Shown: positions 4,991-52,700, counted from the stretch's first letter. The stretch is DNA of 64,000 nt from Terriglobales bacterium (GCA_037442635.1 JBBIPV010000011.1:11636-75635), one strand, 5' to 3'. The notes: generated from the sequence alone by a model not told the origin. Numbers and translations: made by a program.

Positions 4991-6763
4991 TTACTTCTTC
5001 TTCGGCGCCGCTTTCTTCGCCGGAGCTGCGCTCTTGACCGGCGTTCTGCCGCCGATCAGGGTCAGCGCGTCTTCGGCGTTGAATGGGAATTGGCGAACTG
5101 ACGATTCGCCCGTTGTGCTCAGGGTGACGTCCACCCGGCGATTGCTTGCCATCCTGATCACCGTGATGTTCTTCAGTACCCTCTGCTGCTCTTCCCGGCT
5201 GAGCTGGGGGTTGCTCTGGACCGCATCCTTCACCTCGGCATCGGTCAGGTTGTGCTCTTTGCCAAACGCCTTGACTTCGATGCTGCTCTCCGGAACACCC
5301 TGTTCCACCAGGAAGCTCTTGGTGCGGTTGACCCGACGCTCAGAGAGCGCCTGATTGTATTCCACGGAACCACGATGATCCGCGTGGCCTCCGAGAATCA
5401 AGTGCGCATCCGGCTTGGCTTCACGATACTTCTTGAAATCAGCAGCCAGCGCGATCAATGTCCTCTGTTGACTGGCCAGCAGACCGCCTTTCGGATCGTT
5501 CGGCCTGGGCTGGTCTACCACAAAGTAGATGCTATGCAGGGCGAGACGTGCTTCCAGCGCCTTGTCCACCGGCGGAGGCGGCGGGTTTTCGACCATCACC
5601 TGCGTTGTCGCTTGTGAGCTCAGTCCGCGAGAGTCGGTGCAGGTCGCCGTTACGGAGACAGAGCCAGCCGGAACTCCGGCCGTGTTCAGAGTAGCTGAGC
5701 TACCACTGCCGGAAACCGTGCCGGCGGTCGAGGTCCAGTTCGAAACCGATACCGGAACACCGTCGGGGCTGGTACAGGATGCGGAGATGTTCGAGGTCCC
5801 ACCGGTGACCAGGTCTGCCGGACTGGCCGACAGCGAAACCGTCGGCGGATTCTTCGGCGGCAACGGCTTCACCGTATAGCTGGCCGAGCAGCTTGCCTCG
5901 TTATTCTTCTTGCTCTTGGGGTCGGTGACGTGCGCCGTGACCGTGTAGGTGCCCGGAGCTGCGTTGGTGGTATCAATGCTGGCCGTGGTTTCTTTGCCAG
6001 TGACTGTGCCGCCGGTGCCGGCCCAACTGTAAGTGACGGTGTGCTTTGGATTGAAATTGCTGGCCGCAACGGTGGCCGTGAGCGGTTCGCCGACCATGAC
6101 TTCGGTGGGCTGCACGGAGCAGGAGGCTGCCGGGGCCAGGGGTTCCTCGCCGCCCCAGCTCAAGACGATACCGGTGCGGAGCCTTGCGCCGTCCAGGGTG
6201 TGATGGCTGAGGTTGGGAAAATTGGCGGACACCAGGTCGGAATAATTGTGCCGGGCCCAGACATAGTCCGCTTGAAAAACCCGCCAGGCAATGGACTTGG
6301 TGAGGGGCAGGTCCATGCCGCCGCCGAGAATCGCGCCAATGCCGTTGGTGCCACCGTTCAAACCGCTTACCGAGAGAAAGTTGCCGCCGACCAGGCCATG
6401 CAGGAAGTAATGTCCAGCGTCAGTCCGCCACATAAAGCGGGGACCGACCGAAGCCGTCGTTTCGGAATTGCCTTTTCCCGAGCTGTAGCCAAAGTCAGTC
6501 TCCAATCCCCAGTACCGGTTAAGGTTGTAAGTCAAGGCTGTGCCGATGCCCTTGGACATGTCGTCAACCTTGTATGCGATGGGATTGTTGGGGTCACCCA
6601 GCGGAACGGTAGCCCCTGGATGTTGCCATTGATAACCGGCAAACAGGTCCCATTTCGGGTACGAATCGCTCTGCGCCAGGGCAAGAGCGGGCATCAACAT
6701 TACCGTCAGAGCCACAAACAGCCATACCGGGAGATTTGTGCGTGCGCTATGACCAATTGACAT
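4991..6763 (-). CDS. OmpA-family outer membrane protein (N-terminal beta-barrel, two Ig/PKD-like repeats, C-terminal OmpA peptidoglycan-binding domain)
   Basis: Signal peptide ending ALALAQS and an aromatic-rich barrel segment. The C-terminus GGHADHRGSVEYNQALSERRVNRTKSFLVEQGV matches the OmpA_C signature. Confidence 0.85.
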   Translation of the reverse strand: MSIGHSARTNLPVWLFVALTVMLMPALALAQSDSYPKWDLFAGYQWQHPGATVPLGDPNNPIAYKVDDMSKGIGTALTYNLNRYWGLETDFGYSSGKGNSETTASVGPRFMWRTDAGHYFLHGLVGGNFLSVSGLNGGTNGIGAILGGGMDLPLTKSIAWRVFQADYVWARHNYSDLVSANFPNLSHHTLDGARLRTGIVLSWGGEEPLAPAASCSVQPTEVMVGEPLTATVAASNFNPKHTVTYSWAGTGGTVTGKETTASIDTTNAAPGTYTVTAHVTDPKSKKNNEASCSASYTVKPLPPKNPPTVSLSASPADLVTGGTSNISASCTSPDGVPVSVSNWTSTAGTVSGSGSSATLNTAGVPAGSVSVTATCTDSRGLSSQATTQVMVENPPPPPVDKALEARLALHSIYFVVDQPRPNDPKGGLLASQQRTLIALAADFKKYREAKPDAHLILGGHADHRGSVEYNQALSERRVNRTKSFLVEQGVPESSIEVKAFGKEHNLTDAEVKDAVQSNPQLSREEQQRVLKNITVIRMASNRRVDVTLSTTGESSVRQFPFNAEDALTLIGGRTPVKSAAPAKKAAPKKK

Positions 6764-11315: not shown

Positions 11316-12464
11316 TCACTTTCCTTTGGCCCGGGCGCTGTTGACTTTGGTGAGCAGGTCTTGTGACATGGCCTGCAGCGGACCGGGAATTTTCACCGCC
11401 TCGGTCAGCACCTCACGCGCCTCAGTCAGTTTGTTGGCTTTGCCGTAAGCGAAGCCCAGGCCATACAATGCGCGCGCGTATTGCTGATCGTCCTCACCTT
11501 TGAGGAGCGTGGCGGCAGCCTTGAGATCGGGAATCGCCGCGGCAGTTTTCTCCTGCTTCAGATAAGCCCAACCCATGGCGTTATGGGCCACCCCGCCCGC
11601 GACTTTGCGCGACTTGTCGGCGTCGGGCGCGTCCGGCTTGGCCACCTCAATGGCCTTCTGCGAGTAGCTCATCGCCTTGGCGGCGCTGCCCGGCTTGGAG
11701 TCGTCGCTGTAGAAATTAGCCAGCAGCAGCAGCGCCGGCAGGGAGTTGGGATTCGCGGCCAGCGCCTTCTCGCCGAACGCCACCAGCCGCGTGGGATCGT
11801 TCAACTGGCCGGGGCCGAGCGTATAGAGCGCGTAGGAAGAAACCTGGTCCTGAAATTTCGAGTCGGGAAACGTCGCACTGAATTTCTCGATTTCGGACAT
11901 GCGGCTCTTCGGATCGTTTTCCGTGGCGATCACGTTGAAGGCGGTGCTTTCGAGAAAATCGCAGCTGCTCTGGACTGCCGCTTTTTCGTCCGCCACTCGG
12001 CGCGTGAAGTCTTCAGCGCTCATCCCTTCAGGCTTGGGCTGTTTGGCGATTGAGTTGCACACTTCGCCGCCTTTGACCGCATAGTCTATGAGCTTGGCGT
12101 TGTTCTTGGCCTGCTGCGCAATGTTGGCCTGCGACACCAGAATGTCCAGATTGTGGGGAGATCCCGCCAGCGCCTTGTCGCCATAGTCGAGCGCTTTTTG
12201 CAGGTCGCCGTTGGTCTGATAGGACTGCGAGATTTGCCAGTTCCCGTAGGCCACCGCCGCCGGATTCGAGGAGAACTTCTGCACAAACGCCTCGTAGAGG
12301 GAGAGCTTCTTCTGCGGGTCCTGCTCGTTGGAGATGGTCTGCAGTTCGTGATCTTCATCTGTGCCGGCGGCAATTGTGATGTGATCCACCTGGGCGCTTA
12401 CGCGATACGCCGAAAAGGCGAGACTGAACAGAACCAACATCAGCCAACCGATGATGCGTTTCAC
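11316..12464 (-). CDS. TPR-repeat secreted protein
   Basis: Signal peptide MKRIIGWLMLVLFSLAFSAYRVSAQ, with repeated A..Y..LG..Y TPR-like periodicity. Confidence 0.7.
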   Translation of the reverse strand: MKRIIGWLMLVLFSLAFSAYRVSAQVDHITIAAGTDEDHELQTISNEQDPQKKLSLYEAFVQKFSSNPAAVAYGNWQISQSYQTNGDLQKALDYGDKALAGSPHNLDILVSQANIAQQAKNNAKLIDYAVKGGEVCNSIAKQPKPEGMSAEDFTRRVADEKAAVQSSCDFLESTAFNVIATENDPKSRMSEIEKFSATFPDSKFQDQVSSYALYTLGPGQLNDPTRLVAFGEKALAANPNSLPALLLLANFYSDDSKPGSAAKAMSYSQKAIEVAKPDAPDADKSRKVAGGVAHNAMGWAYLKQEKTAAAIPDLKAAATLLKGEDDQQYARALYGLGFAYGKANKLTEAREVLTEAVKIPGPLQAMSQDLLTKVNSARAKGK

Positions 12465-12584: not shown

Positions 12585-12673
12585 GCAATGAGCAGTGAGC
12601 AATGAGCACCCCCGCTTGGCTCTCAACAAACTCATGACTCATTGCTCATCGCTCGTTGCTCATTGCTCCCTGC
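12585..12673. repeat. heptanucleotide tandem-repeat palindrome (unit GCARTGA / TCAYYGC)
   Basis: Left arm: gcaatga gcagtga gcaatga (12585-12605). Right arm: tcatgac tcattgc tcatcgc tcgttgc tcattgc tccctgc (12632-12673). Confidence 0.85.
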
Positions 12674-12696: not shown

Positions 12697-13947
12697 ATGC
12701 GCGCCATTCTCGGCCGGCGTCCGCTTCGCTTTGTGTTTGCCGCCAACGTGATCTCCATGTTGGGCAGCGGGATGAACTCGGCCGCCGTGGCCTGGTACAT
12801 CCTGGAAGCCACGCACTCGGAAATGGCGCTGGGCACCTTTGCCGTCCTGCAGACGATCCCGGCCATGCTCATGCTTCCCTTCACCGGCGTGATTATTGAC
12901 CGCGAGGATCGCCGGCGGCTGGTGATGTGGCTCGACGCCCTGCGCGCCGTCATTATCGTTGCCGTGGCCATCCTGGCATTCCAGCACCGGGTACGCATCT
13001 GGCAGCTCTATCTAATGAACACGCTGGTGGCGGCCGGCTTCTGGATGTTCTGGCCGACCATTACTGCGCTCATTCAGGAACTCACGCCCGAGGGCGAATT
13101 CGTCCACTCGAACACTTTCCTGATGGCCGGGGTGCAGGGCGGATGGCTCATGGCCGGAGCCGTGGTGGGCTTCGTCTACAGCCGCATCGGTCTGGGCGGC
13201 GTGCTCATGCTGGATGTCTCCACCTACGTGGTCTCGTTTCTGTGCTACTTCGCGGTGCGCAAGGGGCGGCACGTGGTGCTGCAGCCGGAAGAAATCCGCG
13301 CTGACATTCTCGCGGCGGAGACCCAGTTCGCAAGGTTCTGGCGCGAGATGGGCGATGGCCTGCGCTTTCTGCGCGATCACCGGGCAGTGGTCTTGCTCGG
13401 CATCAGTTGGGCGCTATTTCTGGGCGCCATGGTCACCGGAGTGGTCGTGACGCCGTCGCTCAGCGATCGCGTGTTTCACGCGGGCGCGGTGGGCTACGGC
13501 TGGCTCAATGCGGGTTGGGGTACTGGAGCCTTCCTCAGCGCTTTATATGCGCCGCAGGCGATTGCGCGCCTCGGCGGGCGACGCGCGGTCGCGTTCTCGA
13601 TGGCCGGGCTGGCGGTGTGCATGGCGTTCGCCCCGATTTCGCGCTTCCTCTTCTTGGCGATTTTGACCTATTTTCTGATGGGCTCGGCGCGCGGCCTGGG
13701 CGGCGTGGCCATGAATACCAGCCTCATGGAGGTGGTCCCCAAGCACCTGATGGGACGGGTGCAGAACACGTTTTATTTCTTCGGAACGTTTCTGCAACTG
13801 ACACTGGCGATTGTGGTGGGTTTAGTCGCGCACAAGGTCAGCCTGATGGCTGCCTTCGCCATACTGGCGTGCGTGTATGGAATGTCGTTCGTGGCGGCCA
13901 GCTGGCCAGTCCAAACCACGATTCGCGTCGCCTCGCCAGCCGAATGA
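12697..13947 (+). CDS. MFS transporter (EntS/MFS_3-like)
   Basis: 416 aa with about 12 hydrophobic segments. The N-terminus (FRFVFAANVISMLGSGMN ... GVIIDREDRRRL) is typical of this MFS subfamily. Confidence 0.8.
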   Translation: MRAILGRRPLRFVFAANVISMLGSGMNSAAVAWYILEATHSEMALGTFAVLQTIPAMLMLPFTGVIIDREDRRRLVMWLDALRAVIIVAVAILAFQHRVRIWQLYLMNTLVAAGFWMFWPTITALIQELTPEGEFVHSNTFLMAGVQGGWLMAGAVVGFVYSRIGLGGVLMLDVSTYVVSFLCYFAVRKGRHVVLQPEEIRADILAAETQFARFWREMGDGLRFLRDHRAVVLLGISWALFLGAMVTGVVVTPSLSDRVFHAGAVGYGWLNAGWGTGAFLSALYAPQAIARLGGRRAVAFSMAGLAVCMAFAPISRFLFLAILTYFLMGSARGLGGVAMNTSLMEVVPKHLMGRVQNTFYFFGTFLQLTLAIVVGLVAHKVSLMAAFAILACVYGMSFVAASWPVQTTIRVASPAE

Positions 13948-14900: not shown

Positions 14901-15890
14901 ATGGGTCGCGGTTTAGCCGCCATTCGCTGCTCGCTTGTACTCTTCCTGATGACTCTTCTTCCCACCCTGCAGGCTCAGACGGGCCCCCTCGATCAGGCCC
15001 GCGCTCTGGTTGCCGCACGAACGTCTGCCGACCAGGCGAAGGCGCTACTGCAACAGGCCATGGTCGCAGATCCCAGGAATGCCGAGGCTCATTTTCTGCT
15101 GGGCCAGGTTTTCTACGCGTTCAACGATTTTGCGAAGGCCTCCGACGAAGCCCAGAAAGCCGTAACCCTCGATGAAAGCAAGTCGGACTATCATCTGCTG
15201 CTGGGAAATGCACTGAGTGGGCAGCTCGATTCCGCTGGGATGTTTAAAAAGATGTCGCTAGCCCGCCAGATGAAAGCGGAGTTCGAGCGAGCTGTCGCCG
15301 AGAGTCCGAAAGACATTCCAGCGCGCGCCGCGCTGGCTGAGTTTTATGCGCAGGCCCCGGGCATTGTCGGCGGCAGTAACGACAAAGCCCTCGACCAGGC
15401 CAGGCAGATCGGCGCCCTCAACGCGATAGAGGGCCACTATGCCATGGCCGTAGTCTACTTTGACCAGAAAAAGCTGGCCGAAGCCGAGAAGGAATACAGG
15501 GCAGCGATTGCCGCCGATCCGAAGCGGGCCAAATCCTACGTGCAGCTCGCGTTTGTTCTCATTCAGGAAAAGAAAGATTCCGAGGCGCCAGCGCTTTTCA
15601 AGCATGCGGTGGAAGTGGATGCCAATTACTTGCCTGGATATTTCGGCGTCGCGCGGTCCGATCTGCTCAGCGGGCAGAATCTCGATGAAGCCGAGCGCTT
15701 CTTCAAGAAATATCTAAGCCGCTGGCCCGAGGAGGGCGATCCCACCTGGGCCAATGCCCATTGGCGGCTGGGGCAGGTTTATGAGAAGCAGGGAAAGAAA
15801 GACATGGCCATTGCTGAGTGGCAGGAAGCCCTGAAGCTGGCTCCAAACTTCAAGCCCGCGCAAGAGTCGCTGAAAGCCGCTGGGAAATAG
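14901..15890 (+). CDS. TPR-repeat secreted protein
   Basis: The ATG at 14901 follows ggag and gives the signal peptide MGRGLAAIRCSLVLFLMTLLPTLQAQ. TPR-like repeats run throughout. Confidence 0.7.
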   Translation: MGRGLAAIRCSLVLFLMTLLPTLQAQTGPLDQARALVAARTSADQAKALLQQAMVADPRNAEAHFLLGQVFYAFNDFAKASDEAQKAVTLDESKSDYHLLLGNALSGQLDSAGMFKKMSLARQMKAEFERAVAESPKDIPARAALAEFYAQAPGIVGGSNDKALDQARQIGALNAIEGHYAMAVVYFDQKKLAEAEKEYRAAIAADPKRAKSYVQLAFVLIQEKKDSEAPALFKHAVEVDANYLPGYFGVARSDLLSGQNLDEAERFFKKYLSRWPEEGDPTWANAHWRLGQVYEKQGKKDMAIAEWQEALKLAPNFKPAQESLKAAGK

Positions 15891-15967
15891 ATCGGGACCG
15901 TTGCTGCACCCGACATAGCGGGTCGCGGCCCTCGACTGATATCCTTTCTCCTTCCCAAGGAGCCGCC

Positions 15968-16738
15968 ATGTCCTCAGACCTGCAGGGCCGTAACGCTGTC
16001 GTCTTCGGAGTCGCCAACAAGCGCTCGATCGCGTGGTCCATCGCCCAGGGACTGCACGCCGCCGGCATGAAGCTCGCCATCACGTACCAGAACGAGCGCA
16101 TGGAACTGGAAGCGAAGGACCTGATTCTGTCGCTGCCCGGCGCCGAGGCCTACATGTGCGACGTCTCGAAAGACGAAGACATTGACCGCCTCTTCGCGAC
16201 GTTGAAGGAGCGTTACGGGAAGCTGCACGCGCTGGTGCATTCTGTCGCCTACGCGCCCGCGGAAGAGCTGAAGGGAGATTTCGTCAACACCACGCGCGAA
16301 GGCTTTCGCGTCGCTCACGATGTGAGCGTGTATTCGCTGATCGCGGTCTCGCGCGCCGCGGCTCCGCTCATGGAAGACGGCGGCTCGATCATCACCATGA
16401 CGTATTACGGTGCCGAGAAGGTCGTACCCCACTATAACGTCATGGCGGTGGCGAAGGCGGCGCTGGAGTGCACCGTGCGCTATCTCGCTCACGATCTGGG
16501 CAAGAAGAAGATTCGCGTCAACGCGATTTCCGCCGGTCCGATCAAAACCCTTGCCGCACGCGGCATCTCGGGCCTGGGAGACATGCTGAAATCCCACGCC
16601 GAGCGCGCCCCGCTGGGACGAAATGTGGAGGTCGCGGAGGTTGGCTCCACTGGAGTATTTCTCGCTTCCGAAGCAAGCAGCGGAATTACTGGCGAAGTGA
16701 TCTACGTGGACTGCGGGTACAACATCATGGGGTTTTAG
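15968..16738 (+). CDS. fabI: enoyl-[acyl-carrier-protein] reductase (NADH) FabI
   Basis: GVANKRSIAWSIAQGL dinucleotide-binding motif, and SDR-like Y/K catalytic region (YNVMAVAKAALE). An AAGGAG SD lies 7 nt upstream of the ATG at 15968. Confidence 0.9.
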   Translation: MSSDLQGRNAVVFGVANKRSIAWSIAQGLHAAGMKLAITYQNERMELEAKDLILSLPGAEAYMCDVSKDEDIDRLFATLKERYGKLHALVHSVAYAPAEELKGDFVNTTREGFRVAHDVSVYSLIAVSRAAAPLMEDGGSIITMTYYGAEKVVPHYNVMAVAKAALECTVRYLAHDLGKKKIRVNAISAGPIKTLAARGISGLGDMLKSHAERAPLGRNVEVAEVGSTGVFLASEASSGITGEVIYVDCGYNIMGF

Positions 16739-16742
16739 GAAC

Positions 16743-16777
16743 AGTTCTCAGTTCTCAGTTGTGAGTTTTCAGTTTGC
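16743..16777. repeat. heptanucleotide tandem repeat (5 units, AGTTNTC)
   Basis: agttctc agttctc agttgtg agttttc agtttgc, starting 5 nt after the fabI stop. Confidence 0.85.
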
Positions 16778-16782
16778 GGGTG

Positions 16783-16820
16783 CCCCACTTCTCCCCGGTT
16801 TTGGGAGAAGTGGGGGTTTT
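16783..16820 (+). terminator. intrinsic terminator of fabI
   Basis: 13-bp stem ccccacttctccc / gggagaagtgggg with a 7-nt loop, followed by gTTTT. Confidence 0.7.
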
Positions 16821-16838
16821 GACTTACCGCTTTAATAT

Positions 16839-16869
16839 GAGCGGCATCCGCCCCTCCCGCCGCTCTTTT
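16839..16869 (+). terminator. second terminator-like hairpin
   Basis: gagcggc ... gccgctc forms a 7-bp stem with a 13-nt loop, followed by TTTT. Confidence 0.3.
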
Positions 16870-16974
16870 CCACAGCTTTTTTTCTTCCCTGTGACGGATG
16901 AACTTTACTGAGAATTTCACTCTGCCTAATCTGGCAGCGTAGGGCCCGGATGTGGCGCGGCGCCAGTCCTAGGA

Positions 16975-17320
16975 AACTCGCCGCCCCCGCAACCTCCCCA
17001 TGCGAGCGAGGGACAGAGGGACATCCGATGCAGGGCGCAGCAGACAGTCAACTCGAATGGCTCGAGATCTGGCGCCCGTTGTGGGAGTGATCACTCCTAA
17101 CGTTTGAAGCGGCAAGTGAAGTAAGAAGCCAACCGGGAGTAAGAGGAGAGACGAACCAGAAGCTGGGAGCAAGGATAAGTGGTCAAGGACAGAAAGAGGG
17201 AGACAACGATAAGCTAGCCGCGAAGCGGCGAAAGAATAAAGCCCACGGCGCAAGCCGTGGGTAAGCGGACGAGCAGATGGGAACAGCCCCGAAGGGGCGA
17301 AAGAAGCCTGCTTATCAGAC
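16975..17320 (+). ncRNA. candidate structured, purine-rich non-coding RNA of unknown class
   Basis: No ORF on the + strand, with stops in all frames. Nested hairpin at 17033-17077 and hairpin at 17084-17097. The closing stem gataagc (17208-14) / gcttatc (17310-16) encloses three hairpins: 17217-29, 17242-61 (8 bp, GCAA GNRA loop) and 17286-98. The hairpins are separated by A-rich linkers. Confidence 0.3.
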
Positions 17321-17499
17321 CGCAACTACCGCGAGAACCTCATCGCCTGCCCAAACGCCGGCGTTGCAATCGTGCGTCTGCCATGGAATGATGAATCCCA
17401 TGCGGAACCAGCGCCTCGTCTTCGCCTTCTTCGCTGCCGCCATCCTGTTCTCGATGGTGCGCGAATGGACCGCGCCCGCCCGCTGCGCCCGAATCGCAA

Positions 17500-17552
17500 T
17501 AGACCGCACAGCCCCCTTCAGACACGGTCAATGAGCGTAATCGCGATGTTAC
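17500..17552 (+). repeat. copy 1 of a 43-nt exact (53-nt near-exact) repeated element
   Basis: tagaccgcacagcccccttcagacacggtcaatgagcgtaatc is identical at 17500-17542 and 19813-19855. After 3 mismatches, the next 7 nt (atgttac) are also shared. Confidence 0.9.
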
Positions 17553-17591
17553 GCCAGTTAGCAGCCCGGCCATCGAGCAGAAGCACCGGCA

Positions 17592-17827
17592 TCCGTTACT
17601 ACTGGAAATCACATTGTGCCGCACCAGGTTGCTATTGCTGTAAATGTCAGTCCCGTCATTAACGGGCGTGCTGAAAATCTTGTTTTCGATCGAGATGCTA
17701 TTGTTCGAGTTGGCGTACACGCAAGTTCCTACCTCCGACGCGCGGACGTGCTCCCACTGGGTAGGAACTTGCTTGACAATGGCGCTGGGGCCCGAGAAAA
17801 TCGGGCAGTACCGTTCCCCCGCCCCGT
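17592..17827 (-). pseudogene. possible relic of a parallel beta-helix repeat protein gene
   Basis: Minus-strand frame without start context: ...IFSGPSAIVKQ...VYANSNNSISIENKIFSTPVNDGTDIYSNSNLVRHNVISSSNG. This resembles PbH1-type repeats and then degenerates into Arg/Gly-rich nonsense. Confidence 0.2.
17773..17801 (+). promoter_or_regulatory. sigma-70-like promoter candidate for the beta-propeller gene
   Basis: TTGACA (17773-78), 17-nt spacer, GAAAAT (17796-801), about 50 nt upstream of the ATG at 17851. Confidence 0.25.
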
Positions 17828-17850
17828 AAGCTCACCGGAAATGAGGAAGC

Positions 17851-19758: not shown

Positions 19759-19793
19759 CCCTGTTACCCTGACCCTGTTACCCTGACCCTCCT
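19759..19793. repeat. heptamer-phased tandem repeat (14-nt unit ccctgttaccctga x2, plus a degenerate unit)
   Basis: ccctgtt accctga ccctgtt accctga ccctcct. Confidence 0.85.
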
Positions 19794-26841: not shown

Positions 26842-26910
26842 CGTTGGCCGTTGGTCGCTTGTCGTTGGCTAACAACCGGCAGAGTCACAGCCAACGACCA
26901 ACGACCGACT
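26842..26910. repeat. heptanucleotide tandem-repeat palindrome (unit CGTTGGY / RCCAACG)
   Basis: cgttggc cgttggt cgcttgt cgttggc, then a 20-nt spacer, then gccaacg accaacg accgact. Confidence 0.85.
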
Positions 26911-26967
26911 ATAAAACAAAATGGCCCTCCGCGCTGTGCGGAGGGCCACAGAGCCATCAGCCGATCA

Positions 26968-30061: not shown

Positions 30062-30172
30062 GGTGGCGCTGGTCAGGCCCAGGCCTTTGACCAGTTCCTG
30101 ATCCTGGTGGCTGTGAATCTCCCAGTCGCTGGCTGCCGGCGGCTGCGGTTTCGGTGTGCTCAGGAGTGGCTC

Positions 30173-30214
30173 CTTGTCGTTGGTCTTCGGTCTTTGGTCG
30201 TCGGTCTTTGGTCG
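30173..30214. repeat. heptanucleotide tandem repeat (unit TYGGTCK), including a perfect 14-nt duplication
   Basis: cttgtcg ttggtct tcggtct ttggtcg tcggtct ttggtcg. Confidence 0.85.
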
Positions 30215-30228
30215 TCAGCTAACTCACT

Positions 30229-30340
30229 TTGTCATCCTGAGGAGGGCGCCTTTTGCCCGACGAAGGACCTATGCAGTTAGCCGGCACCATCCCCACCGCC
30301 GGCAAACTTCACAGGTCCTTCGCTTCGCTCAGGATGACAA
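30229..30340. repeat. 112-bp palindromic (MITE/REP-like) element
   Basis: Outer 13-bp stem ttgtcatcctgag / ctcaggatgacaa. Inner 10-bp stem cgaaggacct / aggtccttcg. Confidence 0.8.
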
Positions 30341-31101: not shown

Positions 31102-32454
31102 CTAGCCAGCATTTTTCTTCAGGAAGCGCTCAATAAATCCCGTATCGAAGTTCCCCGCCCGGAAGTCCGGGTCTGCCAGAATCTTGCGGTGCAGCGGGAT
31201 GGTCGTGTACACGCCCTCGACGATGAACATCTCCAGCGCGCGCGACATGCGCGAAACGGCTTCGTTGCGGTCTTTGCCGCGCACCACCAGTTTGGCGATC
31301 AGCGAGTCGTAATAGGGCGGGATCACGCCCTCGGCGTAGGCCGCCGTGTCCACGCGCACGCCGGTCCCGCCCGGCGGGTGAAAGGCTGTAATCTTCCCTG
31401 CCGACGGCGTGAACTTCTCCGGATGCTCGGCGTTGATGCGGCATTCGATCGAATGCCCGCGATGCACGATCGGCCCCAGCAGCACGTCGCGCATGTTCGC
31501 CCCGGCGGCAATCATAATCTGGCTTTTCACCAGGTCCACGTCGGTAACCATTTCGGTCACGGGATGCTCCACCTGAATGCGCGTGTTCATCTCGATGAAG
31601 TGCAAGCGGCGATCCCGGTCCATCAGGAACTCAATCGTCCCCGCGTTGGTGTAACCGATCGCCGCCAGCGACTGGCACAGGACCGCACCAATTTGATCGC
31701 GCAGTTCCGGACTGACCTGGGTCGAAGGAGATTCCTCCAGAAGCTTCTGATGGCGGCGCTGGATCGAGCATTCGCGCTCGCCCAGGCTGACCACGTTGCC
31801 GTGCTCATCGGCCAGCACCTGAAACTCGATGTGGCGGGGATGCTCCACGTACTTCTCCATGTAGAGATCGCCGTTGCCGAAGGCGCCGGCGGCCTCCGAT
31901 TGCGCAGCTTTGAACAATCCAGGCAATTCTTCCGCGCTGCGGACGATGCGCATGCCGCGTCCGCCGCCGCCTGCCGATGCCTTGACGATCACCGGGAAGC
32001 CGACCTGCCGCGCCCACTCGATCGCTTCGCCGTCCGTCGCGACAATGCCGTCCGATCCCGGAAGAATCGGCACGCCGGCCTGCTTCATGGCGGCACGGGC
32101 CTTTTCCTTCTCGCCCATCAGCCGCGTCACTTCCGGCCGCGGGCCGATGAATTTGATGCCGCTGGTCTCGCAGACTTCGGCGAAGTTGGCGTTTTCCGCC
32201 AGCAGCCCGTAGCCGGGATGGATGGCTTCGACGTTGGCGATCTCGGCGGCGCTGATCACCGCGGGAATGTTGAGATAGCTTTGCGCCAGTTGCGGCGGCC
32301 CGATGCAGATGGCCTCGTCGGAAAAGCGCACGTGCAGGGAATTGCGGTCGGCCTCGCTGTAGATGGCCACGGTGCGAATGCCCAGCTCCTTGCAGGCGCA
32401 AATCACGCGCAGGGCGATCTCTCCGCGGTTGGCGATCAGAATTTTCTTGAACAT
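31102..32454 (-). CDS. accC: acetyl-CoA carboxylase biotin carboxylase subunit AccC
   Basis: [18 protein letters not shown]-terminus from the ATG at 32454. ATP-grasp motifs run throughout. Confidence 0.95.
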
Positions 32455-32466
32455 GAGCAAGTTACA

Positions 32467-32577
32467 GCGATGAGCTATGAGCCGTGGGCGATGAGCAGTG
32501 AGCCGGCGGTTACGATTGCATCAGTCCTGGTTTGTCCGCTCATCGCTCAGTGCTCATTGCTCATCGCTCACTGCTTC
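32467..32577. repeat. heptanucleotide tandem-repeat palindrome between accB and accC (unit GCNRTGA / TCAYNGC)
   Basis: Left arm: gcgatga gctatga gccgtgg gcgatga gcagtga gccggcg. After a 27-nt spacer, right arm: ccgctca tcgctca gtgctca ttgctca tcgctca ctgcttc. Confidence 0.9.
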
Positions 32578-32584
32578 CAAACGC

Positions 32585-32607
32585 AAAAAAGGCGCGGCTA
32601 TGCGCGC
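32585..32607 (-). terminator. terminator-like GC hairpin plus U6 directly after accB
   Basis: Minus strand reads ...gcgcgcatagccgcgccTTTTTTgcg, about 20 nt after the accB stop. Confidence 0.35.
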
Positions 32608-32627: not shown

Positions 32628-33134
32628 TCACTTCTTCGGCCTTATCACAAACAGTTCCTGGCCGTACTCAATGGGCTGGCCGTTGGTGGCCAGTTTCTTG
32701 ACGATTTCCCCGGCCACATCCGACTCAATCTCGTTGAGCAGCTTCATGGCCTCGACGATGCAGAGCACCTGCCCGACTTCGACCGAGTCGCCAGCCTTGA
32801 CGAACGGCGGAGCTCCGGGCGAGGGCGCTTCGTAGAACGTACCCACAATCGGGGACTTCACCGTATGCAGGCCTTCTTCCGGGGCAGGCCCGGCGCCGGC
32901 TGGCGGGGACGCGCCCGAAGGCTGCAATCCGGCGCCGACGGCAACTCCGTTCTCGACGGTTGCGCCGGGAGCCGGGGGCACGGCGAAGAAGCGCGGCTCG
33001 CCATGAGCCTGGACAACCGTGTGCTCCCCAGCCCGCTTGATGCGCACCTTGACGTCACCGCGTTCCAATTCGAACTCGGCAATATCCTTTTCGATCAGGA
33101 ACTCGATCAGTTCTTTCAGCTCTTTTTGATTCAT
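32628..33134 (-). CDS. accB: acetyl-CoA carboxylase biotin carboxyl carrier protein AccB
   Basis: The ATG at 33134 gives MNQKELKELIEFL. Pro/Ala linker. Biotinylation motif CIVEAMKLLNEI. Confidence 0.9.
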   Translation of the reverse strand: MNQKELKELIEFLIEKDIAEFELERGDVKVRIKRAGEHTVVQAHGEPRFFAVPPAPGATVENGVAVGAGLQPSGASPPAGAGPAPEEGLHTVKSPIVGTFYEAPSPGAPPFVKAGDSVEVGQVLCIVEAMKLLNEIESDVAGEIVKKLATNGQPIEYGQELFVIRPKK

Positions 33135-33234
33135 TCGCTTTACGGTGGGACTGCTCGCCAACCTGCCGCGCCCCGCACCGGGACGCGTGAAGAAGCCGGG
33201 GCATTCTCGCAACCGGCTGAAGTTATTAAGAAGA

Positions 33235-34323: not shown

Positions 34324-34347
34324 TGCTGGAAGTGTAGCAAGAAAGGA

Positions 34348-34423
34348 GCAATGCGCGATGAGCAGTGAGCCATGAGCGCGCAACCAGCACATGGCTCACC
34401 GCTCATGGCTCGCTGCTCACCGC
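34348..34423. repeat. heptanucleotide tandem-repeat palindrome (unit GCNRTGA / TCANNGC)
   Basis: Left arm: gcaatgc gcgatga gcagtga gccatga gcgcgca. Right arm: tggctca ccgctca tggctcg ctgctca. Confidence 0.9.
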
Positions 34424-34466
34424 AAAAACACCACCGCCGGCCTGACAGGTTCTTCAGGGCCGGCGG
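34424..34466 (-). terminator. intrinsic terminator of the pil operon
   Basis: 12/13-bp stem ccgccggcctga / tcagggccggcgg (one bulge) with an 8-nt loop. On the minus strand it is followed by tggtgTTTTTgcg. It lies 35 nt after the pilQ stop. Confidence 0.65.
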
Positions 34467-34500
34467 TTCGAATCTTCGACGCGCTGCTAAGTTCCGACGA

Positions 34501-36676: not shown

Positions 36677-38101
36677 TTACACGGCCGGAGTAAAGATCTT
36701 CTTTACCACTTCGCGAGTGAACGACTTGCCCAGCTTGTCCTGCACCGTCTCGGAGAACACGACCGAGTCGCCGGTGATCTTCATGACGTAGCCGTTAAAC
36801 ACAGGATCGTTCTCGCGCAGGAAATACGCCTTGTTGAGGCTGTTGGTGACGACGGCGATGAATCCGTTGTCCGACTTCACCACGCCCCGCAGGTTGATGT
36901 TGCCAATCTCCAGGCACTTCTTTCCGGTAGTGCAACCGGACCCGCCCTGTTGCTGTACGACCGGACTGAAGAATGGATCGCGCTTGCCGCTCATCGCCCA
37001 TTTCTTGTCTTCCGGCTTCGGCTCGGCCTTCTTGTCCTCGAGCTTGGGCTTGAAGGCATCGGCGGTCTTGCTGGCGTCCGGAGCCGCCTCAGTTTTCGCT
37101 TCTGTCTTGGCCTCTTTCTTGGCTTCTTTCTTGGCTTCTGCCTTAGCTTCTGTCTTGGCTTGGGCCGGCTTAGCGACCGCCTTCGAGTCCTTGGAATCCT
37201 TCGAAGGTTTCGGGGCGGGTTGCGCTGTAGCCTTGGCTACGACTACCGGCATCGAAGAAGAGACAGGCTTCGCCGACGGAGGTTGCGCCGCTGCCGGAGC
37301 GGGACTCTTTGCCGACGCGACCGGATGCGACGCAGTTTGCAGTTTCGCCGTTGGCGCCGGGCTCTTCGCGATCAGCTGCGGCTGAGGCGCCGGTTGTGCT
37401 TTCGGCGCGGGCGCTGCGTTCTTGGCCGTCGCCTGCGGCTGGGCCGCGGGTTTCGAAACGTTTGCAGGGGCGCTCTTTGCCACCGCCTGGGTGTGCAGGT
37501 TCAACACCAGCTTGCCGTTGGCTCCCGGCGCCAGCTCATAGGTGCAGGCCTTGTCGAGATCCACAACGACGCTGGTCGTTGGCGGAGTTTTGCCGTCGGT
37601 GCCGATGCGAACGCCTTTCACGCCGGCGTTGCCAAATGCAATCTTGTTCTGCGGGCTGGCGCTGATCGTTTCCGGCAACTCAACCAGAACCCGTGCCGGT
37701 GAAGCCAGCTTGCTGACTCTCGGCGTCACGCTCTGGCTGGCAATCATTTCAACGCGCACGCCGTCCGCGCTCTGCACCACGTTCACGCGCTGGAGCTGAT
37801 TGGAAGCCGCGGTTGACTTGGGCGTGGAGGCGGGCTTGGCCGCAGGCGCGGGAGTGGCAGCCCTGGCCGCCGGTGACGCCTGAGACGGCGCGCCCGGAGC
37901 CGGCTTGGACGGATTGCCCACTCCGGCTGCGTTCAGGGCCGCGTTGGTGTCGTTGGCCTGCTTCTGCTGCAGCGATTTGGCGATGCTGCGCGCGTTGTCA
38001 ATGGCGTCGGTGTCTTGGGCTGCAGCCTGCGAAACGAGGTTCCCACCCGCCATGATGGCCACTGCCAGAATGCCTGTTGTCAGCTTGATCGCTGTCTTCA
38101 T
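36677..38101 (-). CDS. pilP: PilP-like pilus assembly protein fused to an AMIN domain and a long Ala/Pro/Lys-rich linker
   Basis: Signal peptide. AMIN-like residues at about 101-205. 12-nt-periodic KEAK repeats. C-terminal KRDPFFSPV plus a beta-domain typical of PilP. Positioned between pilO and pilQ. Confidence 0.7.
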   Translation of the reverse strand: MKTAIKLTTGILAVAIMAGGNLVSQAAAQDTDAIDNARSIAKSLQQKQANDTNAALNAAGVGNPSKPAPGAPSQASPAARAATPAPAAKPASTPKSTAASNQLQRVNVVQSADGVRVEMIASQSVTPRVSKLASPARVLVELPETISASPQNKIAFGNAGVKGVRIGTDGKTPPTTSVVVDLDKACTYELAPGANGKLVLNLHTQAVAKSAPANVSKPAAQPQATAKNAAPAPKAQPAPQPQLIAKSPAPTAKLQTASHPVASAKSPAPAAAQPPSAKPVSSSMPVVVAKATAQPAPKPSKDSKDSKAVAKPAQAKTEAKAEAKKEAKKEAKTEAKTEAAPDASKTADAFKPKLEDKKAEPKPEDKKWAMSGKRDPFFSPVVQQQGGSGCTTGKKCLEIGNINLRGVVKSDNGFIAVVTNSLNKAYFLRENDPVFNGYVMKITGDSVVFSETVQDKLGKSFTREVVKKIFTPAV

Positions 38102-50862: not shown

Positions 50863-50925
50863 CTAGTACAGCGGCGGCTGTCCCTCGGGCCGGGTCTTCC
50901 AGCGGCGGTGCACAGGAGCCCATTT
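50863..50925 (-). pseudogene. relic copy of the 3' end of the LpxL-like acyltransferase gene
   Basis: Translates ...KWAPVHRRWKTRPEGQPPLY*, compared with ...EQWLWVHRRWKTRPEGERGLY* at the intact gene end (51720-51785). Core DNA matches 25/27 nt. Confidence 0.55.
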
Positions 50926-50937
50926 CGGGAAAGAAAG

Positions 50938-51575
50938 GCGTCCCAAGGACGCTCGATAGTAGCCCGGCGTTTCAACGCCGGGTAGGCTGGTGTATGCATG
51001 ATACCGTCCCGTAGGGACGGCTGAAATCGTTCTGGAGCCGCCATGCCGCACACGTACGTTTCGGAACTGATCCATTGTGTCTTTTCCACGAAGGAACGCC
51101 GCAATCTGATTCCGGCAGCTGTGCAATCTGATCTTTGGGCGTTCATTGGAGGCGTAGCTCGCAAGAACGGATTTAGAGCGCTCATCGTAGGTGGCACCGA
51201 GAATCACGTGCATATCCTCTTGTCACTGCCCGCAACTTTGCCGCTCGCCAAAGCGATGCAACTGGTGAAAGGAGCGTCTTCTCACTGGATGAACGAGACG
51301 TTCAAGGGCGAGTTCGCCTGGCAGGAGGGATATGGCGCCTTCAGCTTGGGAGTCTCACAGAAAGCTGACACAATCGCGTATATCCAGAAACAAGGTGAAC
51401 ATCATCGCCAGCGCAATTTTGAGGAAGAGTTCTTGGTGTTCTTGAAGAAAAACGGCGTGGAATATGATCCAACACACGTCTGGGGATAGGTTCAGGCATC
51501 CCTACGGGATGCTCAGAATTGCCGGGCCTGCCCGGCGTTGAAACGCCGGGCTATTTTCGGGCGCCCCGCGCGGGG
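50938..51575 (+). mobile_element. REP-RAYT unit: Y1 transposase gene flanked by inverted REP hairpin pairs
   Basis: Left: GTAG + cccggcgTTTCAAcgccggg (50959-82) and ccgtcccGTAgggacgg (51004-20). Right, in inverted orientation: gcatcccTACgggatgc (51496-512) and cccggcgTTGAAAcgccggg (51531-50). Confidence 0.65.
51043..51489 (+). CDS. IS200/IS605-family Y1 (HUH) transposase, REP-associated (RAYT-like)
   Basis: 148 aa. HUH motif HVHILL and the typical N-terminus HCVFSTKERR. Has a conserved Tyr region. No tnpB partner. Confidence 0.8.
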   Translation: MPHTYVSELIHCVFSTKERRNLIPAAVQSDLWAFIGGVARKNGFRALIVGGTENHVHILLSLPATLPLAKAMQLVKGASSHWMNETFKGEFAWQEGYGAFSLGVSQKADTIAYIQKQGEHHRQRNFEEEFLVFLKKNGVEYDPTHVWG

Positions 51576-51615: not shown

Positions 51616-51685
51616 CAGAGGTCTGAGGTCTGCGGTCTGAGGTCTGCGCTCTGAGGTCTGCGGTCTGAGGTCTGCGCTCTGAATC
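51616..51685. repeat. heptanucleotide tandem repeat, 10 units (CTGMGST), with a 28-nt higher-order duplication
   Basis: cagaggt ctgaggt ctgcggt ctgaggt ctgcgct ctgaggt ctgcggt ctgaggt ctgcgct ctgaatc. Confidence 0.9.
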
Positions 51686-51719: not shown

Positions 51720-52619
51720 TCAATACAGTCCCCTCTCCCCTTCGGGCCGGGTCTTCCAGCGCCGGTGGACCCAGAGCCATTGCTCGGGATACTTGCGCAC
51801 GTATTCTTCGATCACGCTGGTGAATTTCTGGGTGTTGGCCACGATGTCGGCCTCCAGGTCGCCGGTGCGAACTAATTCCACCGCCGGATCAAAGCGCAGG
51901 CGGTACTTCCCCAGCTTCTCGTCCCAGATCGTGAACCCGGGCACTACGGCCGCGTCGGTCCGCAGCGCGATGCGCGCCAGGCCGCTGGCCGTGCAGGCCG
52001 GGATGCCGAAGAAGTTGACGAAGACACCTTGCGGCGGCGTCATGTTTGTGTCCATCAGGATGCCGACCGTTTCCCCCGCTTTCATTGCCGCCAGCAGGCC
52101 ACGCACGAAATCATCCTTGGCTACAGTCTTGTTGCCGTGCATAGTGCGGTAATGCTCGATCAGCCGGTCGAGATAGGGATTGTCCATGGGCCGCATGACC
52201 ACGTGCAGCCAGTGTCCGTGCAGCGAGTGCGCAAAGGCGGAAATCTCCCAGCCACCGAAATGCGCCGTGAGAAACAGTACGCCCTTGCGCCGGGCGTAAG
52301 CTTGCTCGAAGTTCTCCAGGCCGTCGTAGACGACGACCTCCTCAACGTTTTCCCTCGTGTAGCGCGGAAACTGGCACACTTCGGCAAGCTGGCGGCCCAG
52401 TGAAGAAAATTCTCCGCGCAGAATCCGCGTGTGCTCCGCTTTCGTTTTTTCCGGAAATGCCAGGGCCAGATTGCGCATGCCCACACGGCGCAAACGGCCA
52501 TGCAGCAGATAAACCAGCTGCGCCAGGGCGATGGCGAAGGTTCGCGACAGGCTGCGCGGCAACAGACCCAGGATTTTGATGAACGGCCAGGCAGCCGCGT
52601 ATTCCAGTTTTCGCCGCAT
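51720..52619 (-). CDS. LpxL/HtrB-family lipid A (lysophospholipid) acyltransferase
   Basis: LTAHFGGWE (HX4-type acyltransferase motif) and a conserved C-terminus PEQWLWVHRRWK. Confidence 0.8.
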   Translation of the reverse strand: MRRKLEYAAAWPFIKILGLLPRSLSRTFAIALAQLVYLLHGRLRRVGMRNLALAFPEKTKAEHTRILRGEFSSLGRQLAEVCQFPRYTRENVEEVVVYDGLENFEQAYARRKGVLFLTAHFGGWEISAFAHSLHGHWLHVVMRPMDNPYLDRLIEHYRTMHGNKTVAKDDFVRGLLAAMKAGETVGILMDTNMTPPQGVFVNFFGIPACTASGLARIALRTDAAVVPGFTIWDEKLGKYRLRFDPAVELVRTGDLEADIVANTQKFTSVIEEYVRKYPEQWLWVHRRWKTRPEGERGLY

Positions 52620-52626
52620 TAGGGTC

Positions 52627-52700
52627 GTGCTCAGTGGTAGCGGCCAGTAGTCAGTAAGGACTCAATCTTGACTGACCACTGCTCACTGACCACTGACCAC
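52627..52700. repeat. heptanucleotide tandem-repeat palindrome (unit GTGGTCA / TGACCAC) filling the intergenic gap
   Basis: Left arm: gtgctca gtggtag cggccag tagtcag. Right arm: tgaccac tgctcac tgaccac tgaccac. Confidence 0.85.

Follow-up and report, generated by a model that had tools for sequence, protein, structure and literature searches.

What are the tandem heptanucleotide arrays that occupy the intergenic DNA of a Terriglobales bacterium, and does one of them, a 111-nt palindrome between accB and accC, serve the genes that it separates? The window analysed here is a 64-kb stretch of one contig (GCA_037442635.1 JBBIPV010000011.1:11636-75635), ~18% of which is non-coding by codon-usage-based gene calls. 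A sequence-only reading of this DNA had placed nine arrays of 7-nt units in it and had proposed that the accB-accC palindrome sets the AccB:AccC ratio. Slicing of the nine intervals into 7-mers, together with Tandem Repeats Finder (TRF), recovered all nine arrays where they had been reported. We consider it somewhat better than an even bet (a probability of roughly 55%) that these are slippage-driven simple-sequence arrays of the kind known as short tandemly repeated repetitive (STRR) sequences, which fill dispensable DNA and whose hairpins have incidental effects. The arrays and the predicted terminators that adjoin two of them are as follows.

12585-12673, no strand assigned: inverted pair (GCAATGA)3, 26-nt loop, (TCATYGC)6 (TRF and 7-mer slicing; fold z=-6.0), between the divergent genes for a tetratricopeptide repeat (TPR) protein (11316-12464, minus strand) and a major facilitator superfamily (MFS) transporter (12697-13947, plus strand), its end 24 nt from the MFS ATG.
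16743-16777, plus strand: direct array (AGTTCTC)5 (TRF and 7-mer slicing), unstructured (z=+0.5), beginning 4 nt past the stop codon of an enoyl-acyl carrier protein (ACP) reductase-like gene (15818-16738, plus strand).
19759-19793, plus strand: direct array with a 14-nt two-unit period, CCCTGTT ACCCTGA (TRF period 14, 95% matches), flanked by two plus-strand genes.
26842-26910, no strand assigned: inverted pair (CGTTGGY)4 ... (CCAACGA)3 (fold z=-4.7), flanked on one side by the intrinsic terminator of an amino-acid permease gene and on the other, 5 nt away, by the ATG of a gene for a TrkA-type K+ channel (start 26836, minus strand).
26911-26949, minus strand: intrinsic-terminator-like hairpin (12 bp) and T-run 3' of the permease gene, kept in relatives; the array 26842-26910 starts directly after it.
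30173-30214, plus strand: direct array with a 14-nt period, (TTGGTCG TCGGTCT)3, in the thiE-permease spacer (TRF and 7-mer slicing).
32467-32577, no strand assigned: inverted pair (GCNRTGA)5, 38-nt loop, (TCAYNGC)5, in the accB-accC spacer (fold z=-5.6).
34348-34423, no strand assigned: inverted pair of the GCNRTGA family between the terminator of a pilQ-type secretin gene and pepP (fold z=-6.5), adjoining a conserved extended -10-like element, TGCTACACT, 7 nt upstream of the pepP ATG (34323).
34424-34468, minus strand: terminator-like hairpin and T-run after the secretin gene, conserved across relatives.
51616-51685, plus strand: direct array of period 14 nt, (GGTCTGA GGTCTGC)5, the longest of the direct arrays (TRF and folding), between a REP-flanked IS200-like Y1 transposase gene (REP, repetitive extragenic palindromic) and a lipid A acyltransferase gene whose 3' end faces it.
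52627-52700, no strand assigned: inverted pair (GTGGTCA)n ... (TGACCAC)n (fold z=-5.6), taking up the whole 84-nt spacer from a Ysc84-like stop codon (52704) to an acyltransferase ATG (52619).

The period of the arrays was evaluated with a lag-p self-match scan of the whole 64 kb (p=4-15) against 20 dinucleotide-preserving shuffles. Only three periods gave arrays: p=7 with four, p=14 with two and p=12 with one, which lies inside a gene. The remaining periods (p=4-6, 8-11, 13 and 15) gave none, and the shuffles contained no array of any period. The TRF program reports a period of 7 or 14 at all nine loci. The earlier description of the arrays as strictly 7-periodic overstates their regularity a little, since units match at 70-93% and three arrays (19759, 30173 and 51616) have a 14-nt two-unit period. 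A TRF census (at least 3.5 copies) was extended to a comparison set of 80 loci of ~21 kb, collected through an accC search, ranging from close relatives to other phyla and denoted here by L numbers. In every group, more arrays have period 7 than any other period: 8 of 11 in the window, 26 of 47 in Terriglobales-like loci, 18 of 35 among other Acidobacteriota and 13 of 26 among other phyla. The phenomenon is therefore general, beyond both window and lineage, and the prominence of period 7 over periods 6 and 8 that the sequence-only reading depended on is borne out by scan and census alike. An assembly artefact is ruled out by the recurrence of the arrays in independent assemblies of relatives. 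The 12-nt exception (37085-37161) comprises 5.3 copies of GCTTCTGTCTTG inside a gene (36677-38101, minus strand), presumably encoding a 4-residue protein repeat, and is the sole array of the self-match scan with a period other than 7 or 14.

None of the nine arrays overlaps a called gene, for which the chance expectation is 0.18^9, or ~2e-7, and 49 of the 53 heptamer elements in acidobacterial loci are likewise non-coding. Coding periodicity is ruled out on this anatomy. Identity as a CRISPR array is excluded as well, because the units are contiguous 7-mers, not 24-48-nt repeats with unique spacers of similar length. These findings support the view that the arrays are a real, separate non-coding family, distinct from coding, CRISPR and REP sequences. 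Flanking genes were confirmed with Pfam, and structured RNAs were sought with Rfam 15 at its gathering scores; no array was matched by Rfam anywhere in the window. The sole match there is the Acido-Lenti-1 small RNA (RF01687; 17216-17261, minus strand; 51.4 bits against a gathering score of 37), which sits in a stretch poor in open reading frames (ORFs) at 16780-17850, where two ORFs have no Pfam match.

Five of the nine arrays (12585, 26842, 32467, 34348 and 52627) face their own reverse complement and are predicted to form long imperfect hairpins, as had been proposed. Their folding z-scores against 200 shuffles range from -4.7 to -6.5, with 0/200 shuffles folding as well, whereas the four direct arrays are unstructured (z -1.4 to +0.9). 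Units do differ between loci and fall into several families, three loci sharing the GCNRTGA unit by 7-mer slicing; they are less diverse than had been thought, given that four arrays (26842, 30173, 51616 and 52627) have a GGTC core in common.

The accB-accC spacer is the one for which a function had been proposed. In addition to the array itself, three features define this locus.

31102-32454, minus strand: accC, biotin carboxylase (Pfam), 95% identical to that of a 'Ca. Sulfotelmatobacter' metagenome-assembled genome (MAG).
32585-32607, minus strand: intrinsic-terminator-like GC hairpin and T6, 20 nt past the accB stop codon (detected at 32592-32607).
32628-33212, minus strand: accB, biotin carboxyl carrier protein (Pfam; start codon uncertain).

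On the minus strand, the order is thus accB stop codon, terminator-like hairpin with T6, 111-nt palindrome, 12 nt and accC ATG. The hairpin and T-run noticed beside accB were detected on this coding strand and, like those at 26911-26949 and 34424-34468, have the form of a predicted terminator: a GC-rich stem-loop and T-run after a stop codon. Folded as the mRNA strand, the palindrome yields -54.7 kcal/mol (z=-5.6). Its arms pair to a similar extent whichever of several registers is chosen (29/42, 29/44 and 24/38 matches), which indicates that they pair only through their shared consensus; they are therefore two opposite arrays of one consensus, not a helix maintained base by base. The same register-independent pairing rules out mirror-symmetric arms of the kind expected from a recent inverted duplication or from selection for one helix.

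Contrary to the premise of the sequence-only reading, accB and accC are not tightly coupled in this clade, where the spacer varies from 27 to 380 nt among close relatives. The window has the GCNRTGA palindrome in it, L012 has AGCTNTC units, L002, L004 and L007 have REP hairpins and L003 has no repeat; in L011, the spacer comprises only 27 nt. The terminator-like hairpin after accB is kept in the window and in L003, L004 and L017, the latter three of which lack the heptamer palindrome. By these alignments, the conserved element of the accBC region is the predicted terminator-like hairpin. Because the spacers of close relatives carry different units, other repeats or nothing, the comparison argues against the palindrome being a dedicated conserved accBC regulator and for a lineage-specific addition. 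Heptamer palindromes do occur in the accB-accC spacers of L012, of L050 (a Blastocatellia MAG) and of the distant organism at L096 (AccB 45% identical). In L096, a (GCAGTGA)n palindrome (1103-1188) fills the spacer, starting within the accB stop codon (CAG TGA) and ending 3 nt before the accC ATG.

Relatives keep the gene order pilQ-pepP-accB-accC-thiE-permease-permease-Kch, and therefore orthologous spacers can be compared side by side. The nearest of these relatives by AccC (94-95% identical) are MAGs labelled 'Candidatus Sulfotelmatobacter', Terriglobia or Acidobacteriota, and at this distance orthologous spacers carry different units, REPs or nothing. These identities and the Acido-Lenti-1 match place the source, a soil bacterium, among the Terriglobales acidobacteria, near 'Ca. 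Sulfotelmatobacter'. In the pilQ-pepP gap, for example, the window has a GCNRTGA palindrome, L004 has GGTCTTG/AAGACCY, L015 has CAGTACC/GGTACTG and L012 has GTCAGGT/GAGAGCT, these arrays of differing units all lying just past the secretin terminator, and L005, L006, L009 and L011 have nothing. The permease-Kch gap differs likewise, with CGTTGGY units in the window, of which L003 keeps a decayed remnant, CAGTGGT/CCACTGA in L002 and GATAGCK in L009. Conversely, a unit family may reappear elsewhere in another relative, as GGTCTTR, GAGTACC and CCACTGA do. Copy number varies too: the GAGTACC array after accC has 3.6-4.7 copies in L002, L004 and L017 and about one unit in the window, and the thiE-permease array 30173-30214, which is orthologous to arrays in L002 and L015, has 6 units in the window, 5 in L015 and a decayed remnant in L002. 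The two-unit super-periods and these orthologous differences together indicate expansion and contraction in situ. In the aligned spacers, the gain, loss and replacement of arrays outpace the divergence of species.

Placement is regular. Arrays begin 0-20 nt after a terminator T-run, the distance from their end to the next start codon is 0-24 nt, and the start codons next to them have no obvious Shine-Dalgarno sequence. At pepP, a conserved extended -10-like motif (TGNTAMACT; 34326-34336, minus strand, in the window; also in L009, L011 and L012), recognised by eye only, lies 7 nt before the ATG. This arrangement suggests that the pepP transcript is leaderless or nearly so and starts just downstream of the heptamer palindrome. 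Because the palindrome is directly upstream of this motif, array 34348-34423 is probably promoter-upstream DNA rather than 5' untranslated region. Scans for sigma-70 promoters around three palindromes gave no match. Upstream of the first permease gene, AGGAG followed by [C/G]TGAGCAC is conserved between the window (30100-30172, minus strand) and relatives, and the apparent start codon of this gene would be CTG in the window where relatives have GTG.

The STRR heptamers of heterocystous cyanobacteria, STRR1-3, are CCCCAGT, TTGGTCA and CAACAGT. The likeness to them that had been pointed out is apt: those sequences are also 7-nt tandem units in 3-10 copies at dispersed intergenic loci, with several families per genome, and they share the cores CAGT, GGTCA and CTGA with the arrays described here. 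The acidobacterial arrays agree with the general STRR pattern of head-to-tail 7-nt units in at least three copies, dispersed in non-coding DNA (9/9 in the window, 49/53 across acidobacterial loci). They fall outside its narrow definition, because full units are not identical, the host belongs to the Acidobacteriota and ~40% of elements are convergent inverted pairs. Heptamers are over-represented among bacterial simple sequence repeats (SSRs), for which a polymerase-slippage bias has been proposed (Mrazek et al. 2007, as cited in PMC4692102), and 7n3 alone among SSR classes is in excess in several phyla (Huang & Mrazek 2014, PMC4060949), with an acidobacterial median of 0 across four genera (PMC4060949). 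The phenomenon is thus not new in kind, heptamer repeats having been described in other bacterial phyla. That such arrays had gone undescribed for this kind of organism may be true, as no description of heptamer arrays for Acidobacteria was found in the literature searched.

Contrary to what had been supposed, the palindromic arrangement is not distinctive. The GGGAATC arrays of Xanthomonas are intergenic and include some convergent inverted pairs with one array per strand (Rehm et al. 2015, PMC4692102); related species carry them between the same genes, with lengths and sequences that vary extensively (PMC4692102). Their units are rich in G-tracts and are proposed to form G-quadruplexes, of which the window units (GCNRTGA, GGTCNNN) are incapable. 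Geobacter metallireducens has three classes (1-3) of intergenic sites with 3-5 tandem 7-9-nt units, mostly in opposite-strand pairs at variable distance (PMC2700814), some in operon-like settings such as proB-proA (Aklujkar et al. 2009, PMC2700814) and with insertion sequence (IS) elements at a fixed distance from the paired sites (PMC2700814). These were called unique to that species and read as putative global regulator binding sites, possibly for integration host factor (IHF) or HU (PMC2700814). Units of the form NNNCTGA found here are similar to the consensus of class 3, MTYCTGA, while families and phylum differ. The accB-accC spacer of L018 (~5080-5240) carries an inverted pair of 8-9-nt units, CACGGAGA/CACGGAGGA ... 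TCTCCGTGA/TCTCCGTGC, whose consensus equals class 2 (TCTCCGTS[Y]), a class described as unique to G. metallireducens.

Two further systems share particular properties with the arrays. TAACTGA repeats, which have the CTGA core of window units, are found a few nucleotides upstream of starts lacking a Shine-Dalgarno sequence in Beggiatoaceae, Cyanobacteria and Bacteroidetes (MacGregor 2015, PMC4679880). In Beggiatoaceae, one unit dominates and is almost always direct and forward with respect to the gene, in contrast to the many units, frequent inverted pairs and lack of orientation bias here; a TAACTGA/TAACTGT inverted pair is present at the Bacteroidia locus L065. The omega (ParB) protein of plasmid pSM19035 binds contiguous 7-bp heptads, direct or inverted, and function requires at least four of them (PMC9499535). 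Window arrays would be comparable in period and copy number, whereas omega sites are plasmid-borne, conform to one consensus, adjoin one another with no intervening loop and are bound by a known ribbon-helix-helix (RHH) protein.

We infer both that slippage generated the arrays and that they lack a gene-specific function. Slipped-strand mispairing would make arrays grow, shrink and homogenise, often in 14-nt two-unit steps, under a bias toward 7-nt units that many bacteria have in common. Arrays would persist in dispensable DNA only, mainly from an intrinsic terminator to the next start codon or -10 element. As single strands, whether DNA or read-through RNA, convergent pairs would form imperfect, slippable hairpins of 25-40 bp, and such pairs would have the potential for cruciforms too. 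Their effects on neighbouring genes would be structural and incidental, like those of REPs: a barrier to 3' exonucleases, a weak additional terminator or an occluded upstream promoter region.

Several observations weigh against slippage as a complete account. Inverted partners accompany 22 of 53 acidobacterial heptamer elements (~40%), which pure slippage does not predict. Nor does slippage alone explain the near-invariant polarity 5'-(GCNRTGA)n-loop-(TCAYNGC)n-3' of GCNRTGA pairs. When these arrays were sought in a separate metagenome scan and partners counted on contigs with full flanks, the partner was downstream in 14 cases and upstream in 1, with 49 of 64 arrays having no partner. Among TRF-defined GCNRTGA pairs, 19-20 of 20, including all three in the window, place the G- or purine-rich arm first; in other families, this rule is not significant (19 vs 10), so that it is significant for GCNRTGA only. 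A palindrome reads alike from both strands, and therefore the polarity does not derive from the direction of transcription or replication. GCNRTGA arrays also occur in contigs of 33-71% GC, as one unit family at different sites. Unit content is non-random: CTGA/TCAG is present in 23 of 66 acidobacterial arrays (4.4 expected), GTCA, GGTC and CAGT are also enriched, and acidobacterial units have 25 one-mismatch links compared with 9.6 when shuffled (0/300 shuffles reach 25), an excess that does not hold among loci of other phyla. The enriched word is CTGA rather than TGA, and it is enriched in Acidobacteriota only; a role for TGA as an all-frame stop codon was ruled out, since TGA is not clearly enriched after unit clustering. 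Finally, short-period arrays (7, 8, 9 or 14 nt) are present in 11 of 31 acidobacterial accB-accC spacers of at least 60 nt, compared with 47 of 412 elsewhere, where spacers of 60-600 nt were counted (odds ratio 4.3, p=8e-4), and at least 6 of the 11 are inverted pairs. Period 7 alone is not enriched there (4/31 vs 31/412, p=0.29).

The GCNRTGA polarity and the shared CTGA/GGTC cores leave room for a recognition or mobilisation mechanism. It is possible, if doubtful, that the arrays, rather than being passive products of slippage, are the footprint of a widely distributed putative machinery with oriented recognition of 7-nt-spaced motifs with CTGA, GGTC or CAGT cores, which could be an enzyme that recognises single-stranded DNA hairpins or terminal inverted repeats (TIRs) and plants convergent arrays past terminators, or an oligomerising nucleic-acid-binding protein whose sites would arise there anew again and again. 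If true, this would explain the constant polarity of GCNRTGA across unrelated metagenomic organisms, the different self-complementary arrays at one spacer in close relatives, the cores shared with STRR, Beggiatoa TAACTGA and Geobacter MTYCTGA, and accB-accC as a preferred site. We regard as unlikely the more specific proposal that each heptamer is a putative DNA site of a small oligomerising protein (omega-like RHH, or IHF/HU-type), such that convergent arrays would bring two filaments head-to-head upstream of the next promoter. Operators and centromeres built on a 7-bp register are known (PMC9499535), and the paired arrays of G. metallireducens carry the annotation of putative global-regulator sites (PMC2700814). 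The fixed polarity of inverted pairs would fit oriented binding, unit cores such as CTGA and GGTC are non-random, orientation is unbiased relative to transcription, and the array directly upstream of TGCTACACT is probably untranscribed DNA. However, with at least five unit families in 64 kb and unit swaps at orthologous spacers of close relatives, many co-evolving binding proteins would be needed; loops measure anything from 12 to 95 nt, the units do not match the omega consensus, WATCACW, and no candidate protein was found.

A further alternative is a mobile origin, in which the arrays would be the TIRs, built of reiterated binding sites, of non-autonomous foldback-type elements that insert downstream of intrinsic terminators, single arrays being decayed half-elements. 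TIRs predict the consistent outside-in polarity, and one family does occupy different sites, both in relatives and in very different genomes, just as different families in the same terminator-proximal spacer of close relatives suggest repeated independent gains. At L158 and L161, the inverted symmetry reaches 12-28 nt beyond the arrays; in G. metallireducens the IS elements stand at a fixed distance from such sites (PMC2700814), and an IS200/RAYT-like gene (RAYT, REP-associated tyrosine transposase) lies 127 nt from the longest window array. We nevertheless judge this origin improbable. Neither target-site duplications nor a conserved loop or core were found among ~21 inverted GCNRTGA elements (3 in the window, ~18 metagenomic), so that despite arms of fixed polarity these do not qualify as foldback transposons or miniature inverted-repeat transposable elements (MITEs). 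The arms share a consensus only and are not mirror images, most GCNRTGA arrays with full flanks stand without a partner, the window Y1 transposase is flanked by a different REP hairpin and several families would require several transposases. Unlikely, too, is RNA-level control in cis, through a 35-bp hairpin in accBC read-through transcripts that would attenuate, be processed by RNase III, stabilise the message or tune accC translation, with direct arrays before start codons perhaps serving as translation-factor sites, as proposed for TAACTGA repeats. The stability of the mRNA-strand fold, arrays that end 0-24 nt from starts without an obvious Shine-Dalgarno sequence, and similar proposals for Beggiatoaceae and Nostoc are consistent with it. 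The suggestion that the element sets the AccB:AccC ratio draws further on the short-period enrichment at accB-accC and on the palindromes of L096, L050 and L012, but sits poorly with the lack of conservation, the register-independent arms and the absence of enrichment for period 7 by itself. Moreover, an efficient upstream terminator would exclude the palindrome from the accB transcript, array 34348 is probably upstream of the pepP transcription start, and the orientation of single GCNRTGA arrays does not depend significantly on the gene ends that flank them (15/52 vs 10/57, corrected for ORF truncation because TGA occurs in all frames).

Other dispersed repeats share these spacers. REPs and bacterial interspersed mosaic elements (BIMEs) are, like the heptamer arrays, dispersed intergenic hairpins near gene ends or terminators with rapid turnover of presence and absence. 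REPs are single 20-40-nt imperfect palindromes of conserved sequence, in contrast to tandem 7-mers, and the arrays contain no such conserved palindrome flanking a RAYT gene, which sets aside a REP/BIME identity. A REPtron-like unit (50947-51566) comprises a gene for a 148-aa IS200-like Y1 transposase (51043-51489, plus strand; PF01797, E=1.9e-23), inverted REP hairpins on either side (GCCCGGCGTTTCAACGCCGGG, 50962-50982, and GCCCGGCGTTGAAACGCCGGGC, 51530-51550) and an inner inverted pair (51007-51025 / 51491-51509). The longest heptamer array is outside these hairpins, and a link between heptamers and this gene was ruled out on finding that the hairpins belong to a different REP (GCCCGGCGTTKMAACGCCGGG). 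A 47-nt direct repeat (79% identical; 50867-50913 / 51724-51770) brackets the transposase gene, its REPs and the longest array; its second copy overlaps the lipid A acyltransferase gene at the 3' end, and the repeat may be the scar of an insertion or rearrangement.

Beside array 30173-30214 in the thiE-permease spacer is a MITE/REP-like inverted pair, GTCATCCTGAGCGAAGCGAAGGACC ... GGTCCTTCG...CTCAGGATGAC (30231-30338), whose motif GTCATCCTGAG is present in 9 acidobacterial loci, at thiE-permease and at other sites. A second REP family, GGACAGCCGAGGGCGGCTGTCCCCAC, is common in relatives, with copies in spacers of L002, L004, L007, L008 and L011 and at 10422, 22414 and 50875 of the window; its core, GGACAGCCG, is present in 19 acidobacterial loci. 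REPs of this family occupy spacers that hold heptamer arrays in other genomes.

Exact-protein look-ups with five window proteins returned only three short Logan contigs, from SRR11582168, which are 100% identical to the window and therefore come from the same source. One of these short-read contigs ends inside the longest array, 51616-51685. Heptamer arrays break short-read assemblies, and they risk being mistaken for regulatory elements of the genes that flank them.

With these arrays, the Acidobacteriota, a dominant soil phylum, join the array-rich lineages. The comparison of syntenic relatives adds a view of the turnover of such arrays and a rule for their polarity. Placement from terminator to start codon, rapid turnover and fixed polarity are testable constraints on whether slippage bias, oriented binding or mobilisation gives rise to heptamer arrays.

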